The position numbers and the translations under genes were made by a program. The notes under the pieces were generated by a model. It was not told the origin of the DNA, did no database searches, and saw only the letters and a program-made list of their open reading frames with translations. From Clostridia bacterium (GTDB taxonomy: Bacteria > Bacillota > Clostridia > Christensenellales > QALW01), in NCBI GenBank assembly GCA_045601365.1, contig JAZRZN010000002.1:20376-84375 (forward strand): DNA of 64,000 bases, written 5' to 3'. Shown here piece by piece: positions 7,935-59,103 of the stretch. Numbering within the stretch: position 1 is the first letter of the stretch; the number at the start of each line of letters is the position of its first letter.

Positions 7935-8201
7935 TTATTTGTATTTTGCGATGAACTGCTTTATGTCGTGCAACAGCAGTTCATCGCGTTTTTGTATTTT
8001 TGGCGAGCTGATATCAAGCAGGTACGACGGGTCAAGCTCAAGGATTTGGCATATCTGCCTGAATTGCTCAAGGCTCGGCTCTTGCAAGCCGCGTTCTATC
8101 TTTGAATAGTTGGATTGGTTCATCGGTATCTTTGCCGCCATTTCGCACTGAGTAATCCCCGCACTTTCGCGGGCAAATTTTATCTTTTCACCAAAATCCA
8201 A
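7935..8201 (-). CDS. XRE-family helix-turn-helix transcriptional regulator
   Basis: HTH_3 pattern (IKFARESAGITQCEMAAKIPMNQSNYSKIERG). The ORF track starts at 8252. However, TGtTATAAT followed by GGAGAGG lies inside that extension, so the TTG at 8201 (LDFGEKIKF) is the likely start. Confidence 0.8.
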   Translation of the reverse strand: MDFGEKIKFARESAGITQCEMAAKIPMNQSNYSKIERGLQEPSLEQFRQICQILELDPSYLLDISSPKIQKRDELLLHDIKQFIAKYK

Positions 8202-8245
8202 TATACTCACCTCTCCTTCGATTATAACATTTTTAACTAAAAGTA

Positions 8246-8274
8246 TTGACAAATAGTTTATAATTATATATAAT
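8246..8274 (+). promoter_or_regulatory. consensus sigma-A promoter for the LRR/cohesin/dockerin gene
   Basis: TTGACA (8246-8251), 17 nt, TATAAT (8269-8274). It overlaps the divergent XRE promoter region. Confidence 0.6.
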
Positions 8275-8328
8275 AGTTAAAAATACACTAAACGTGTGTT
8301 TTGAAAAATAATTTTTTGGAGGAAAAAG

Positions 8329-9894
8329 ATGAAAAAGAACTTGCTTAGGCAGGCAATGTCCCTGTTGCTTGCGGCGGTGCTGGTAGCATCGTGTCTGTTT
8401 GCCATAAATGTGGCGGCAGAAGGGGAAAACATTGTACAGGGAACGACGGGAAGCATCAAATGGGTGTTGGATTTAGACAGATATGTGCTTACCTTAAGTG
8501 GCACAGGTGAAACAGACGGATACTATAATGCAATTAAGGGTTCGTTTTATGACAGACCTTGGCAAAACTATTTAGCGCACATTGAAAAAATTGTTGTAGA
8601 AGAAGGAGTTACAAGAATAGGCAGCGCTTGCTTTTGCGATTGCAACCAATTAGTATCGTTAAGTTTGCCGAGTTCACTTAAGAGCATCGGACGCGCAGCG
8701 TTTAGCAGTGATATACGTTTGGGAAGTATTGATTTGCCCAAAGGACTCACATCAATAGAACCATATGCATTTGAAAATTGCCAACGTTTGAGCGGAAAAC
8801 TAATTATTCCGGGAGTTCTTAATATTGGAGATACTGCTTTTTCAAATTGTACAGCCTTAACAGATGTAGTCATTTCACGCGGAACAATTTCGGTGGGCAG
8901 TGCCGCATTTGACGGTTGTACAAGTCTTAAAACCGTAACCTTGTCGCAAGGGGTTGTCAGCGTTGGCGAAAAAGCTTTCGGTAGTTGTTCCGCGCTTACC
9001 GATATCTATTACGGCGGAACTGAGGACGAGTGGAGCGATATTTCGATAAATGCTACGGGCAACCAATATTTCAATACCGCTACAAAGCATTTCAATGTTC
9101 ATGACCACAGATACATAACCGAGCGTGTTGAGCCGGATTGTACGCATACGGGTGCGGAGGTCAAAACCTGCGCCGAGTGCGGCGAAAAGATAACAAATAT
9201 CATCCCCGCGACAGGACATTTTTACGGCGAGGAGATCGAGGGTGTAAAGTCATGTATCGTCTGCGGACATGTTCAGGTGCATCCTGTTGAAATAACCGTC
9301 TGCGATGCGCGTGCCAATAAGGGACAGGTCAAAGTGCCGATAACACTTGATTATAACCCGGGGATATCGACCTTGCTTCTTAAGATAGGCTACGACAGCG
9401 AGGTATTCACGCTTTCGGAGGTCATCGACGGCGAAATACTCGGTGAAGCCGTTCACAGCGATAAGCTCACTGCCGACCCGTATACGCTTTCGTGGGAAAA
9501 CGACCTTTCGACCACGGATATTCCCGCTACGGGAGTTATCGCAACACTTGTGTTTGACATCAAAGAAGAAGCCGTGATGGGCAATTACAATATTACCGTA
9601 ACAAAGGGACAGGCGGCGAACAGTGCGCTTGAACTGTTCGAAACTTCATGCACCGACGGTACTGTGCGCTTCGATGCCAAGCTGATAGGCGATATCAATG
9701 ACGACGGCGAGGTCACACCTGCCGACAGAATGATGCTTTCGCGCTTCATCGCCGATTGGGATGGTTACGATACGACAACATGCAATATCCATGCCGCCGA
9801 TGTCAACGGTGACGGCGAGGTCGATGTCATTGACCGTATGATACTCGCGCGTTTCGTTGCCGATTGGGAAGATTATAAGGTATATTTTGAATAA
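8329..9894 (+). CDS. secreted BspA-type leucine-rich-repeat protein with cohesin-like domain and C-terminal type-I dockerin
   Basis: Signal peptide (MKKNLLRQAMSLLLAAVLVASCLFAINVAA). About 23-aa LRR units (IGxxAFxxCxxLxxVxLPxxL). A Cys-rich linker. Cohesin-like block (VKVPITLDYNPGISTLLLKIGYD...). Duplicated Ca-binding dockerin segments GDINDDGEVTPADRMML / ADVNGDGEVDVIDRMIL. Confidence 0.75.
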   Translation: MKKNLLRQAMSLLLAAVLVASCLFAINVAAEGENIVQGTTGSIKWVLDLDRYVLTLSGTGETDGYYNAIKGSFYDRPWQNYLAHIEKIVVEEGVTRIGSACFCDCNQLVSLSLPSSLKSIGRAAFSSDIRLGSIDLPKGLTSIEPYAFENCQRLSGKLIIPGVLNIGDTAFSNCTALTDVVISRGTISVGSAAFDGCTSLKTVTLSQGVVSVGEKAFGSCSALTDIYYGGTEDEWSDISINATGNQYFNTATKHFNVHDHRYITERVEPDCTHTGAEVKTCAECGEKITNIIPATGHFYGEEIEGVKSCIVCGHVQVHPVEITVCDARANKGQVKVPITLDYNPGISTLLLKIGYDSEVFTLSEVIDGEILGEAVHSDKLTADPYTLSWENDLSTTDIPATGVIATLVFDIKEEAVMGNYNITVTKGQAANSALELFETSCTDGTVRFDAKLIGDINDDGEVTPADRMMLSRFIADWDGYDTTTCNIHAADVNGDGEVDVIDRMILARFVADWEDYKVYFE

Positions 9895-9909
9895 ACGCTT
9901 AAAAAGTGC

Positions 9910-9938
9910 TTGACAAAAAAACGCATATGTAATATTAT
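9910..9938 (+). promoter_or_regulatory. sigma-A-like promoter upstream of the RAYT gene
   Basis: TTGACA (9910-9915), 17 nt, TATTAT (9933-9938). It lies inside the ORF-track N-terminal extension, which argues that the extension is not coding. Confidence 0.5.
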
Positions 9939-9940
9939 AA

Positions 9941-9970
9941 CGGCTGTAAAACATTTTTGCTTTACAGCCG
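9941..9970. repeat. perfect 10-bp inverted repeat with 10-nt loop
   Basis: CGGCTGTAAA acatttttgc TTTACAGCCG. It could be the terminator of the LRR gene or a 5' hairpin of the RAYT transcript. Confidence 0.6.
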
Positions 9971-10002
9971 TTGTTGTGCTTTGCGGGGCAGTAAATGATA
10001 TT

Positions 10003-10500
10003 TTGAAACATACATTGGATATAAGAAAACCGACACGGTTGAAATGCTTTGATTATTCGGCAAACGGATATTACTTTATTACGGTATGCACGGAAAATAA
10101 ACAGAAAATAATGTGTAATATCGTAGGGTGCGGCGTCCTCGACGCACCGAAAACAGAATTATCCGATATCGGTAAGACCGTAAAAAAGCAACTTGATTTT
10201 ATGGACGATTTTTATAACGATATTAAAATCGACAAGTATGTAATAATGCCGAATCACTTGCATTTGATATTGAAAATAAGGCGTGACAGCGGTGCGTCGG
10301 GGACACCGCATCCTACGAATAATGTGTTATCGTGTTTTGTCGGATCATTCAAACGTTTTACAAACAGAGCCGTCGGCAAAAATATTTGGCAAAAATCGTT
10401 TTACGACCATATAATCCGTGATGAAAACGATTATTTGAGAATATGTGAATATATCGACGCTAATCCTGCAAAATGGGCTGATGATGAATATTACACATAA
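10003..10500 (+). CDS. REP-associated tyrosine transposase-like protein (RAYT; Y1 HUH, IS200-like fold)
   Basis: HUH motif in IMPNHLHLIL. Catalytic Tyr context WQKSFYDHIIRDENDY. Typical N-terminus RKPTRLKCFDYSANGYYFITVCT. Start uncertain (TTG 10003 or 10015); the track start 9910 is unlikely. Confidence 0.75.
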   Translation: MKHTLDIRKPTRLKCFDYSANGYYFITVCTENKQKIMCNIVGCGVLDAPKTELSDIGKTVKKQLDFMDDFYNDIKIDKYVIMPNHLHLILKIRRDSGASGTPHPTNNVLSCFVGSFKRFTNRAVGKNIWQKSFYDHIIRDENDYLRICEYIDANPAKWADDEYYT

Positions 10501-10520
10501 AAACCTACAAAGCTTTACGG

Positions 10521-10674
10521 TGCGTCGGGGACGCCGCACCCTACGGGCAATAGTGTTGCGTAGCGTGCATCGCGGACGCCGCACCCTACGGGCAATAGTG
10601 TTGTGTAGCATGCATCGGGGACGCCGCACCCTACGGGCAATAGTGCTGTGTAGCATGCATCGTGGACGCCGCAC
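10521..10674. repeat. 45-bp tandem repeat, 3.4 copies, each containing a REP-like palindrome
   Basis: Units at 10521-10565, 10566-10610, 10611-10655 and partial 10656-10674. Consensus TGCRTCGNGGACGCCGCACCCTACGGGCAATAGTGYTGYGTAGCR, with only 1-4 differences between units. Confidence 0.9.
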
Positions 10675-57875: not shown

Positions 57876-58631
57876 ATGGCATTTATTCAAATGAGCATGT
57901 TTTCGGAAGCGTTGGGCAAGTGCGTTCAGGTAAACGTCATCATGCCGCAGAACAGCACTAACGGTCAGATAGGCTTGGAGAACAATTCATCCGGCGGTAA
58001 TTACAAAACGCTGTATCTGCTTCACGGCTTGTCCGATGACAATACTATATGGATGCGCAGAACGTCAATAGAACGCTATGCGGCAAAATACGGTATCGCG
58101 GTCGTCATGCCGAACGGCGATAAGAGCTTTTATACAAATATGGTACACGGCGACAGATATTATGATTATATCGCACGCGAGCTTCCGAATATCATAGAAA
58201 ATATGTTCCCGGTATCGCGCAAACGTGAGGATCGCTATATCGCCGGACTTTCTATGGGCGGCTACGGTGCGCTCAAGATAGCGTTGAGAGAAGAAACGTT
58301 CGCCTGCGCCGCGGCACTTTCGCCCGTGGGTGATATAAAAAAGCGTTCGGAATATTGGGTGGAGCTTTTCAAAAGCATTTTCGGAGAGGAGCGAAACATA
58401 CCCGATAATGACGATCTGTATTGGCTCATCAAAAACTGCAAAACGCGTCCGCGTATCTTTATGGCGATAGGCACAGAGGATTTTTTGTATCACGACGACC
58501 AACCGCTTAAAGACGCTATAGTACGCGAAAATTACGATTTCAAGTATATGGAGGGATCCGGAACGCACTGCTGGGAGTTCTGGGACGAGTATATTCAGTA
58601 CGCACTTGAATGGATGTTTGAAAAAGCGTAG
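57876..58631 (+). CDS. esterase (tributyrin esterase / S-formylglutathione hydrolase-like family)
   Basis: Start moved to ATG 57876. LYLLHGLSDD and nucleophile elbow GLSMGGYGA. Confidence 0.8.
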   Translation: MAFIQMSMFSEALGKCVQVNVIMPQNSTNGQIGLENNSSGGNYKTLYLLHGLSDDNTIWMRRTSIERYAAKYGIAVVMPNGDKSFYTNMVHGDRYYDYIARELPNIIENMFPVSRKREDRYIAGLSMGGYGALKIALREETFACAAALSPVGDIKKRSEYWVELFKSIFGEERNIPDNDDLYWLIKNCKTRPRIFMAIGTEDFLYHDDQPLKDAIVRENYDFKYMEGSGTHCWEFWDEYIQYALEWMFEKA

Positions 58632-58644
58632 GTTCTTTACCTTT

Positions 58645-58713
58645 GCCGTTCCCGGTGGCTTCGTCCCCGCACCCCTGCGCGCTTTTTGAAAAAAGCGGGG
58701 CAAAAACTTTTAT
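58645..58713. repeat. dispersed intergenic repeat, copy B
   Basis: GCCGTTCCCGGTGGCTTCGTCCCCGCACCCCTGCGCGCTTTTTGAAAAAAGCGGGGCAAAAACTTTTAT. Homologous to 55116-55187. Confidence 0.7.
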
Positions 58714-58739
58714 TTCGCTTTGCACGTCTATGATAACGC

Positions 58740-59002
58740 GTAGGGTGCGGCGTCCCCGACGCACCGCTGTCGCACGGTGAGTTGCAGGAAATCGCAACAT
58801 GTTTTATATCTTTGTGTCATTGCGAGGAGCGTTAGCTCCGTGGCAATCCGGATACGAACAGAAGTAACTTTATGTAAAACATGGATTGCCACGCATCCTG
58901 CGGATGCTCGCAATGACACAATGGGTATTTTTCGGAATAATGGCGTTGTTTCCTGCCCGTGCTTTGTGCGCGAACGGTGCGACAGCGGATGCCGCACCCT
59001 AC
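58740..59002. repeat. 263-bp nested-palindrome element bounded by inverted REP-like (GTAG-palindrome) motifs
   Basis: Outer inverted repeat GTAGGGTGCGGC...(58740-58765) / ...GCCGCACCCTAC (58987-59002). CCGCTGTCGCAC / GTGCGACAGCGG. TGTGTCATTGCGAG (58813-58826) / CTCGCAATGACACA (58907-58920). GTGGCAATCC (58840-58849) / GGATTGCCAC (58883-58892). Confidence 0.85.
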
Positions 59003-59103
59003 GGGACAGTCAAGACAGTGCGCCGTAAAAACGTATGAGCATATGCTGTTTTCTCAACGTTATTTTTCACGGAAATAAAAAAGAACCAAAGCGTAAAAAG
59101 TGC

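Follow-up and report, generated by a model that had tools for sequence, protein, structure and literature searches.

Is a short open reading frame in Clostridia DNA, followed closely by a run of palindromes, the enzyme of a REPtron, and are the palindromes its own targets? To our knowledge, REP/RAYT systems have been studied almost solely in Proteobacteria. A sequence-only reading of the window, by which we mean the whole 64-kb stretch of DNA that was analysed, had nonetheless proposed such a system here. We consider it probable that the locus is a REPtron, consisting of a single-copy class-2 Y1-HUH enzyme (RAYT / TnpA-REP) and its cognate REP. The gene, the repeats, their setting and their variation are considered in turn below, followed by the explanations that compete with this one.

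The RAYT gene and its product

The mechanical list of reading frames gives a 196-aa ORF at 9910-10500 on the plus strand, the first ~30 codons of which overlap a promoter and leader hairpin that are present also in relatives lacking a RAYT. A total of 1911 homologues were found, and their N-termini align from about residue 5 of the frame that opens at 10003. The mechanical ORF runs from 9910; a TTG, at 10015 or alternatively at 10003, is probably the true start. Neither an ATG nor a Shine-Dalgarno sequence was found for the gene. The protein ends about 10 residues past W158. The coding sequence and its motifs are as follows.

10015-10500, plus strand: probable RAYT / TnpA-REP coding sequence (ORF list, Pfam, NCBIfam, 4ER8 match, N-termini of homologues)
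10246-10263, plus strand: codons of the HUH motif, MPNHLH, flanked by the two in-gene REPs (H85 and H87 invariant)
10387-10419, plus strand: WQKSFYDHIIR, counterpart of the GTAG-contacting segment by alignment to 4er8_A (Q130, D135, H136 and R139 invariant)
10450-10467, plus strand: YIDANP, carrying by alignment the catalytic Tyr and the metal-site Asn (class-2 Y---NP signature)

The NCBIfam model REP_Tyr_transpos (NF047646) was the sole family match (70.2 bits, E 1.6e-19) and fell below its cutoff of 80 bits; a sub-cutoff score against an equivalog model is what a divergent subclass would give and does not argue for placing the protein outside the superfamily. The match to Pfam Y1_Tnp ("Transposase IS200 like") is weak (E 2.6e-5). 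The closest PDB sequence is E. coli TnpA-REP, 4ER8 (E 8e-7, 22% identity), and the AlphaFold2 model (pLDDT 80) likewise found 4er8_A as its top Foldseek match (E 1.8e-8, TM 0.62), with ISDra2 and IS608 TnpA as the next-best folds. Sequence and predicted fold place the ORF product among the Y1-HUH enzymes of RAYT/TnpA-REP type, as the sequence-only reading had done on the strength of its Y1-HUH hallmarks.

Residue invariance was judged over 29 homologues (alignment A1). The loss of the catalytic Tyr or HUH residues on proper alignment had been named as a possible objection, and both are retained, with H85, H87, Y150 and N154 invariant. The earlier placement of the catalytic Tyr in SFYDHIIRDENDY had to be revised, as this segment aligns instead with the GTAG-contacting WQ..EH..R, and the catalytic Tyr lies in YIDANP. 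Specifically, WQKSFYDHIIR aligns with W94, Q95, W99, E100, H101 and R104 of E. coli TnpA-REP, for which the roles of the GTAG-contacting residues were taken from PMC6006769. The Tyr and Asn of YIDANP align with Y115 and N119 of 4ER8, and Y150, I151 and N154 are invariant. Across the alignment, the homologues carry NH[ILV]H and YI[DE]xNP, with YIENNP and YIDNNP among the latter.

The REP hairpin and the array beside the gene

The REP is a GTAG-footed imperfect hairpin, GTAGGGTGCGGCGTCC[CT]CGACGCACC, which is laid out as GTAG-GGTGCG-G-CG-TCCY-CG-A-CGCACC. It occurs twice within the gene, in an array after the stop codon, in the arms of an element 48 kb away, and in other Clostridia genomes. Searching the window with the 26-mer GGTGCGTCGGGGACGCCGCACCCTAC at up to 3 mismatches returned 6 matches, against 0 in 100 shuffles. 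Two of these lie within the ORF, at 10123-10148 (minus strand, 1 mismatch) and 10291-10316 (plus strand, 2 mismatches); beyond the gene, the 26-mer is exact at 10519, is matched at 10564 and 10609 with 3 mismatches each, all of them in the 5' arm, and is exact again on the minus strand at 58740.

10519-10674, minus strand: tandem REP array, 3.4 units of 45 nt (repeat finding, 26-mer matches, hairpin folds)

Tandem Repeats Finder reported a 45-nt period with 3.4 copies over 10521-10674 and 93% matches. The first REP of the array begins at 10519, 18 nt past the stop codon, in agreement with the earlier observation of tandem units within 20 nt of the ORF. Each unit consists of a REP hairpin and a constant spacer of 19-20 nt. 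The palindrome had been described as repeated from unit to unit; this stands for unit 1, which contains the exact 26-mer, but in units 2 and 3, which are not exact copies, the hairpin is of the double-foot kind (GTAGC...CCTAC), its fold pairing GTAG with CTAC. Units 2-4 are partly decayed. As single-stranded DNA, the REP hairpins have folding energies of -10 to -13 kcal/mol, and GTAG sits immediately at the base of each stem, bearing out the claim that this tetranucleotide abuts the palindrome. Searches for a CRISPR, a terminator or a known RNA gave no terminator-like site on the plus strand and no Rfam family at the gathering threshold; because its spacers are constant, the array is not a CRISPR.

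An inverted REP pair within the gene

Two REP copies lie inside the RAYT gene, in frame and in inverted orientation, flanking the HUH codons.

10123-10148, plus strand: in-gene REP copy 1, GTAGGGTGCGGCGTCCTCGACGCACC, GTAG foot on the coding strand (26-mer match, hairpin)
10291-10316, minus strand: in-gene REP copy 2, reading GGTGCGTCGGGGACACCGCATCCTAC on the plus strand, GTAG foot on the template strand (26-mer match)

Copy 1 encodes VGCGVLDAP in the beta1-alphaA loop, with low pLDDT at residues 41-49, and its hairpin folds at -10.5 kcal/mol. Copy 2 encodes GASGTPHPT in the beta3-alphaC loop, between HuH and Y, with pLDDT below 50 at residues 100-105. It is slightly decayed, with 3 differences from copy 1 and a weaker hairpin of -6.6 kcal/mol; position 10305 is G in the same-species strain, which is nearer to the consensus. 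Homologues without REPs have short loops at both insertion sites. The sequence-only reading had missed both copies, which are the most distinctive feature of the locus.

The position of copy 1 also holds a REP in 55 homologous loci, a set defined as homologous metagenome loci with a recognisable GTAGGG copy 1. The hairpin sequence varies widely among these loci (between-loci median 10 of 16), and the two copies of a pair co-vary: in 49 of the 55, copy 2 is the reverse complement of copy 1 within 0-3 mismatches out of 22. Identical REPs are shared by proteins of just 45-50% identity. Within the stems, the differences between copies comprise 11 compensated doubles, 8 that keep the pair and 4 that break it. 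Compensation falls within each hairpin and not from copy to copy (L198, L081, L128 and L186), which favours individual hairpins over a long-range stem.

A target-site duplication around the in-gene pair was considered and rejected. A 12/13 direct repeat, AATAATGTGT[AT]AT, is found in the window but is absent from 52 other loci and thus is not a family feature.

Genomic setting

9910-9972, plus strand: promoter-like site and leader hairpin of the ylxM-ffh operon (11/12 consensus positions; conserved in relatives)

The promoter-like site reads TTGACA, a 17-nt spacer and TATTAT, and both it and the leader hairpin are kept in L201-L203, which are relatives without a RAYT. In three relatives, ftsY is followed by a 105-nt spacer and ylxM, where the window has 2.8 kb extra. 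The RAYT and its array were inserted downstream of the conserved promoter and hairpin, and form a compact, AT-rich insertion of ~0.75 kb in the ylxM-ffh leader; the gene without its REPs has a GC content of 33%, versus 47% for the window. The neighbours of the RAYT are an LRR-cohesin-dockerin gene and ylxM, and in relatives rnc is encoded upstream in this operon neighbourhood. Given its place downstream of the ylxM-ffh promoter, the RAYT is probably co-transcribed with the operon. The 64-kb window contains no tnpB, no IS ends and no second RAYT copy, and the boundaries of the RAYT-array unit show neither terminal repeats nor a duplication, with no direct or inverted repeat above shuffled controls.

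The distal element, dispersal and strain differences

58740-59002, no strand assigned: REPIN-like element, two inverted REPs closing a long imperfect palindrome (26-mer matches, fold)
58631-59087, no strand assigned: 457-nt segment carrying this REP pair, missing from a same-species assembly

The motif does recur 48 kb away, as had been noticed, with one exact arm (58740-58765) and a degenerate partner (58977-59002). The element of ~265 nt folds as a single hairpin at -82 kcal/mol (z = -10.3), and its left arm with the flank matches in-gene copy 2 over 33 nt. That the element is a copy of the in-gene segment was considered and dropped, as its interior is without similarity to the gene spacer or to any other compared sequence; no second copy of this interior was found in any sequence compared. 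Distal REP loci number one per 64 kb in the window, a low copy number.

On either side of the 457-nt segment stands an 8-nt direct repeat, AAAGCGTA, at 58623-58630 and at 59088-59095; imperfect terminal inverted repeats, GGTTCTTT...AAAGAACC, form the ends of the segment. Such features mark a DDE-type MITE, or else a microhomology deletion, rather than the work of an HUH enzyme, and they weigh against the REPtron reading.

Strains were compared through one same-species assembly, GCA_045600145.1, with housekeeping genes 98-99% identical. In that assembly, the array is exactly one 45-nt unit shorter and the 457-nt segment with the distal REP pair is absent, which makes the repeats dynamic; the RAYT ORF is 99.4% identical, with no frameshift. 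The one-unit difference and the presence/absence polymorphism between these two strains of a single species demonstrate ongoing change in the repeats.

Beyond the species, the exact 26-mer was found in many Clostridia MAGs with GC from 0.32 to 0.63, with at least 11 copies in one of them; among the matches listed, nearly all copies have no long ORF around them. These counts are at-least values from a 15-mer scan of genome contigs that was diluted by chance matches in high-GC genomes, and none of its loci belongs to the window's own genome. The locus shows that REP-RAYT systems are carried by uncultured gut and rumen Clostridia, with REPs nearly unchanged among genomes of 32-63% GC; the assignment to Clostridia is based on named relatives of Ffh and RpsB. 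Across the 55 homologous loci, the cognate hairpin of each gene reaches an extragenic density of 48 per Mb, versus 2 per Mb for non-cognate hairpins. The proposal of a REPtron accords with this specificity, as well as with hairpins that abut the gene and return 48 kb off.

Comparison with known systems

By motifs and architecture, the enzyme appears closest to the published subclass 2.4 of TnpA-REP (Quentin, Siguier, Chandler and Fichant 2018, PMC6006769), which is RAYT group 4 of Bertels et al. 2017. This subclass is described with NH[IFV]H, WQ and YIxNNP, with long and double-foot REPs (GT[AG]G ... C[TC]AC) and with in-frame REPs inside tnpAREP (PMC6006769). The window shares with it a short protein without a C-terminal tail; NHxH, WQ and YIxxNP motifs; GTAG-footed long hairpins and double-foot REPs; an in-frame REP in the beta3-alphaC loop; variable short in-gene repeats; a low gene copy number; and a patchy distribution. 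The motifs NHLH, WQ and YIDANP are near, not identical, to those of the subclass, with NHLH and YIDANP deviating slightly from the consensus. Given that in-frame and double-foot REPs are the published hallmark of subclass 2.4 (PMC6006769), the kind of system seen here is already known. Insertions are reported to lie "generally between HuH and Y", with no beta1-alphaA insertion given for subclass 2.4, and its hosts are listed as Cyanobacteria, Bacteroidetes and "various phyla", with Clostridia unnamed (PMC6006769). In contrast, the window has a Clostridia host and a second REP upstream of HuH, in a conserved inverted pair. The Clostridia host, the paired arrangement and the REP copy upstream of the HUH motif appear to be undescribed. 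The same host list qualifies the earlier remark that such systems are described mainly in Proteobacteria, which is partly true but overlooks subclass 2.4 in Cyanobacteria, Bacteroidetes and other phyla (PMC6006769).

Like E. coli TnpA-REP with its REP/BIME elements (group 2, subclass 2.2), the locus has a GTAG foot, an internally mismatched hairpin, the GTAG-contacting residues, the catalytic Tyr and Asn, and a single-copy gene adjoining clustered REPs. The E. coli REPs differ in flanking the gene, not lying inside it, and in numbering hundreds per genome; two further differences are the alphaC-beta4 insertion and the C-terminal extension of the E. coli enzyme. As in the REPINs of Pseudomonas fluorescens (Bertels and Rainey 2011, PMC3116915), an inverted REP pair folds as one long hairpin, a likeness that covers 58740-59002 and, formally, the in-gene pair. 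However, Pseudomonas REPINs are ~100 nt long, very abundant, extragenic and tied to group 3 RAYTs (PMC3116915), whereas the distal element is ~265 nt long and part of a 457-nt indel bordered by an 8-nt direct repeat. The TnpA of IS200/IS605 (IS608, ISDra2) shares the HUH/Y1 fold and the logic of single-strand hairpins, with the foot tetranucleotide resembling the guide sequence; absent here are Y---Q, DH[VI]H, same-strand subterminal end hairpins, the often present tnpB and multiple copies. Rickettsia palindromic elements and further REPs placed in frame in host genes (cited in PMC3733652) are likewise palindromic repeats in frame and tolerated in protein surface loops, but they occupy unrelated host genes at variable sites, while the repeats here co-vary at two fixed positions, in the gene for the enzyme that presumably acts on them.

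Mechanism and competing explanations

We know of no biochemistry on group 4 / subclass 2.4 enzymes. The mechanism proposed for this REPtron is modelled on the biochemistry of group 2 and group 3 enzymes, the only groups that RAYT biochemistry covers (PMC8266576); from it, we infer that the protein is catalytically active and that it is the agent that moves the repeats. On single-stranded DNA, the protein would bind the REP once it has folded into a hairpin, with WQ..DH..R reading the GTAG foot. Cleavage by Tyr150, with the metal held by the HUH motif, would fall at a CT or CA close by, and the strands would be rejoined. Such cutting and rejoining, or recombination between copies, would make new REP copies and tandem units, and would also keep the REPs alike, the two within the gene included.

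A contrasting explanation, which we regard as unlikely, is that the locus is a decaying relic, that is, a horizontally acquired RAYT that is unexpressed or inactive and whose few REPs now alter solely through replication slippage and recombination. Across the clade, intact pairs prevail, the promoter upstream of the ORF is strong and conserved, and the ORF is intact with all invariant residues and remains free of frameshifts at 99.4% identity in the second strain; a relic would be more in keeping with the TTG start without a ribosome-binding site, the 3 mismatches and weak hairpin of copy 2, the array units diverged in the 5' arm and the one distal locus in 64 kb. The strain differences also suit it, since slippage classically yields both a one-unit array change and the loss of a palindromic segment that lies between 8-nt repeats. 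An ordinary IS200/IS605 insertion sequence, with the gene as TnpA and the palindromes as its ends, is hardly credible. The Pfam family is indeed Y1_Tnp, ISDra2 and IS608 TnpA are the next-best folds and comparison with related genomes shows the gene to be an insertion, but the protein has Y---NP instead of Y---Q and NHLH instead of DH[VI]H (PMC6006769). Moreover, there is no tnpB and one gene copy in the window, the unit boundaries carry neither terminal repeats nor a duplication, and the GTAG-bearing hairpins are found in the gene on opposite strands, unlike same-strand subterminal ends; the sequence-only reading had itself named an IS200 TnpA flanked by IS ends as the alternative, and Y---NP and the lack of tnpB and IS ends tell against it.

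It is also very unlikely that the repeats are host RNA or DNA elements unrelated to the enzyme, such as terminators, mRNA stabilisers or a CRISPR-like array. Their place between the RAYT and ylxM in an operon leader would suit such a role, and REPs act as RNA elements in other bacteria (PMC3733652). However, the plus strand has no terminator-like site, no Rfam family matches and the constant spacers rule out a CRISPR; the gene coding for the enzyme also contains this very sequence, and the two co-vary in 49 loci. A subtler proposal concerns the in-gene pair alone, as a maintained cis-regulatory element that keeps the enzyme level low, either as a 28-bp mRNA stem around the HUH segment or as separate hairpins; translation could be throttled, RNase III invited, or the RAYT could bind its own gene. 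We hold this to be rather unlikely. Copy 1 pairs with copy 2 in the RNA fold of 10110-10330 (-82.5 kcal/mol, z = -7.9), the position and frame of the pair are conserved across the clade with REPs more conserved than the protein, and rnc lies upstream in the operon neighbourhood of relatives. Long-range pairing as a selected feature was nevertheless set aside, and kept as a minor rival only: the region folds well, but the differences between copies in L198, L081, L128 and L186 are compensated within hairpins. Furthermore, published opinion views in-gene insertions as tolerated passengers in a peripheral loop (PMC6006769).

A more far-reaching version of the REPtron interpretation departs from that opinion. 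Throughout a large RAYT clade of gut and rumen Clostridia, the inverted pair sits in frame, one copy to each side of the HUH strand. The pair could be an ancestral, actively maintained REPIN nested in its own transposase gene, and not a passenger, which we advance as a tentative idea and think doubtful. Nesting would link the enzyme and its substrate physically, so that recombination or loss could not separate them. If this were true, the REP would be kept far more conserved than the protein and may feed back on expression of the enzyme; the locus would have an architecture of its own among REPtrons, going further than the description of subclass 2.4, and could serve as a natural test of the REPIN-RAYT symbiosis that has been proposed. 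With the gene and its matched inverted target hairpins in one piece of ~0.5 kb, it offers a compact, testable model for how RAYTs and REPs stay matched, how a RAYT may act on or be regulated through its own gene, and how tandem arrays grow.

Two minor observations concern repeats in related genes. The end of contig L130 carries an inverted 97-nt duplication of the 5' part of the gene, which may be an assembly artefact. In the homologue L198, five 45-nt units lie within the gene.

The RAYT gene and its repeats

The evidence supports the locus as a Clostridia REPtron, probably of subclass 2.4 type (Bertels group 4), with RAYT activity predicted, and the paired arrangement of REPs within the gene appears to be an undescribed variant. 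The features concerned are listed below.

7935-8252, minus: XRE-type HTH gene
8329-9894: LRR-cohesin-dockerin gene
9910-9972: promoter-like site and 32-nt leader hairpin upstream of ylxM-ffh (about 5600-5690 in L201-L203, relatives without the RAYT)
9910-10500, plus: RAYT gene, as in the ORF list
10123-10148, minus: in-gene REP copy 1, match of GGTGCGTCGGGGACGCCGCACCCTAC
10291-10316, plus: in-gene REP copy 2, match of GGTGCGTCGGGGACGCCGCACCCTAC
10450-10467, plus: YIDANP with the catalytic Tyr
10519, 10564 and 10609: array matches of GGTGCGTCGGGGACGCCGCACCCTAC, the first exact, the others diverged in the 5' arm
58740, minus: distal match of GGTGCGTCGGGGACGCCGCACCCTAC, exact
58977-59002: degenerate partner of the distal REP

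Pfam gives the protein only a weak Y1_Tnp match, and its sole NCBIfam family is REP_Tyr_transpos (70 bits, E 1.6e-19, under the 80-bit cutoff). E. coli TnpA-REP (4ER8) is the closest solved relative by sequence and also ranks first by fold when an AlphaFold model (pLDDT 80) serves as query (E 1.8e-8, TM 0.62), followed by IS200/IS605 transposases. The sequence-only reading had described a RAYT-type gene with a tandem palindrome array and the same motif elsewhere in the window; these observations are confirmed, and its REPtron-like interpretation is supported. It had also taken SFYDHIIRDENDY for the tyrosine motif. Alignment to 4ER8 corrects this: SFYDHIIRDENDY is the WQ..DH..R stretch, counterpart of the GTAG-contacting stretch in E. 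coli TnpA-REP, and the catalytic Tyr lies in YIDANP, which aligns with Y115 and N119. The Tyr and Asn of YIDANP and the WQ..DH..R residues are invariant across 29 homologues. The window holds one copy of the RAYT gene and no tnpB. Given the N-termini of homologues and the conservation of the promoter and leader hairpin (9910-9972) in relatives without the RAYT, the true start is probably TTG at 10015 or 10003.

At ≤3 mismatches the 26-mer GGTGCGTCGGGGACGCCGCACCCTAC matches the window six times, against none in 100 shuffles, and Tandem Repeats Finder places the array at 10521-10674 (45-nt period, 3.4 copies). Folded as ssDNA, the REP forms stems of 6 bp and 2 bp, separated by a G/A mismatch and capped by a 4-nt loop (-10 to -13 kcal/mol), with GTAG directly at the foot of the hairpin in each copy; in units 2 and 3 of the array, GTAG is paired with CTAC, giving "double-foot" hairpins. 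No further REP family came up when the window was scanned generally for GT[AG]G plus a hairpin.

A matched inverted pair within the gene

Two REPs that had escaped the sequence-only reading lie inside the gene itself. On the coding strand, copy 1 reads GTAGGG..., and it codes VGCGVLDAP between beta1 and alphaA; copy 2, its reverse complement, codes GASGTPHPT, which falls between the HUH strand and alphaC. The AlphaFold model shows both peptides as loops of low confidence, and REP-free homologues have short loops at both sites. GC content is 73% and 69% in these REPs, against 33% in the remainder of the gene and 47% in the window.

DNA comparison covered 80 homologous metagenome loci, of which 55 were scored, those where a copy 1 with GTAGGG lies some 120 nt ahead of the HUH codons; the reverse-complement match that scored best over 22 positions in the 200 nt following the HUH motif was taken as copy 2. 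The copies differ from each other by 0-3 of 22 positions in 49 of these 55 loci, whereas between loci the median hairpin difference is 10 positions out of 16. The residue pairs C/H, T/V and D/S in the protein alignment make sense only as reverse-complement DNA, and the invariant Val-Gly and Pro-Thr residues correspond to the GTAGGG foot in two reading frames. Identical REPs can occur in proteins only 45-50% identical; in a rough protein tree, REP type tracks the tree, with sporadic losses.

As RNA, the in-gene region can fold into a 28-bp stem around the HUH-coding segment. Stem differences between the copies comprise 11 compensated doubles and 8 pair-keeping changes against 4 pair-breaking ones, so each hairpin is kept in its own right; this within-hairpin compensation argues that the conserved feature is the individual hairpins rather than the RNA stem.

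Several local observations concern the in-gene region. A 12/13 direct repeat, AATAATGTGT[AT]AT, flanks the pair at 10109-10121 and 10318-10330 in different reading frames; it is absent from 52 other loci and may reflect chance or a local event. A homologue between hisS and aspS (L198, 10285-10495) has five 45-nt units in frame within the gene, each made of a REP and a further 18 nt; the period is that of the extragenic array in the window, and one compensated base pair separates its copy 1 from copy 2. At another locus (L130, 2477-2587), 97 nt from the 5' part of the RAYT gene recur in inverted orientation at the contig end, with the breakpoint at the REP; this reflects either rearrangement through the REP or an artefact of assembly.

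Cognate repeats outside the gene

That the repeats are tied to the RAYT gene, as had been proposed, is borne out by the 55 loci, where the hairpin cognate to each gene is present extragenically at 48 per Mb, against 2 per Mb for non-cognate hairpins. Many cognate copies lie within about 300 nt of the gene on either side, as in a REPtron. Among the matches listed, the exact 26-mer is present in many Clostridia MAGs (GC 0.32 to 0.63); one MAG has at least 11 copies, nearly all of them in stretches free of long ORFs and often adjoining other GTAGGG-hairpin families. Two loci (L200 and L081) hold RAYT genes with the same in-gene REP as the window.

In related Clostridia genomes (L200 2946-12641, L026, L036, L062, L099), several different GTAGGG-hairpin families often adjoin one another; their mixed clusters, head-to-head or tail-to-tail, are reminiscent of E. 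coli BIMEs. In an Oscillospiraceae MAG (JAFYGM01, 62% GC; L003, L022, L071), the same REP sits inside longer units of about 140-200 nt, repeated in tandem at contig ends.

Comparison with described systems

Quentin et al. 2018 (PMC6006769) describe subclass 2.4 with the motifs NH[IFV]H, WQ and YIxNNP, long and double-foot REPs, REPs inserted in frame in tnpAREP itself, and hosts in Cyanobacteria, Bacteroidetes and various phyla. Compared by description, the window locus fits closely, and its kind is therefore already known. Beyond that description are an additional REP at a fixed in-gene site upstream of HuH, the matching of the two copies as an inverted pair with its co-variation, and the Clostridia hosts; the literature searched gave no account of any of the three. 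RAYT biochemistry covers groups 2 and 3 only. From what those enzymes do, the protein would be expected to bind a REP folded in single-stranded DNA and recognise its GTAG, then use Tyr150 to cut at a CT or CA close by before rejoining the ends. Such cutting and rejoining, or recombination among copies, would account for how units came to stand in tandem, how copies dispersed and how the in-gene pair is kept homogeneous.

Strain differences and genomic context

A same-species assembly (L204), with housekeeping genes 98-99% identical to the window, has the RAYT at the same site (99.4% identical) and an array shorter by exactly one 45-nt unit. It lacks the distal REP pair together with the 457-nt segment around it, upstream of rpsB (58631-59087). 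The 8-nt direct repeat AAAGCGTA borders this segment on both sides (whole span 58623-59095); the segment has ends GGTTCTTT...AAAGAACC forming an imperfect inverted repeat (14/19), and folds as a single long hairpin; the REP pair alone reaches -82 kcal/mol (z = -10). Because HUH enzymes do not make target duplications, the pair may ride on a MITE-like element, or the segment may have been lost from the other strain by slippage or microhomology deletion. The segment also carries a terminator-like hairpin. Between the distal REPs (58812-58922) sits another, unrelated palindrome, TGTGTCATTGCGAGGAGCG ... CGCTCGCAATGACACA, with no further copy in any sequence compared.

The window belongs to uncultured Clostridia, judging from named relatives of its Ffh and RpsB. 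In three relatives, whose Ffh is 88-92% identical, ftsY is followed by a 105-nt spacer holding a promoter and hairpin and then by ylxM-ffh, whereas the window has 2829 nt extra at this junction, in the order HTH gene, LRR-cohesin-dockerin gene, conserved promoter and hairpin, RAYT and array, then ylxM. Homologues elsewhere occupy unrelated contexts, such as the hisS/aspS interval and that between a P-type ATPase gene and rsmE. The promoter-like site and leader hairpin are conserved across genomes with coding DNA only about 75% identical. A T-run follows the hairpin in relatives, which suggests a possible role as leader or attenuator for the SRP operon. The stretch between ftsY and the ylxM promoter (7937-9900) is a lineage-specific insertion, and its LRR-cohesin-dockerin gene is just 85% identical between the two strains that are otherwise 98-99% identical.
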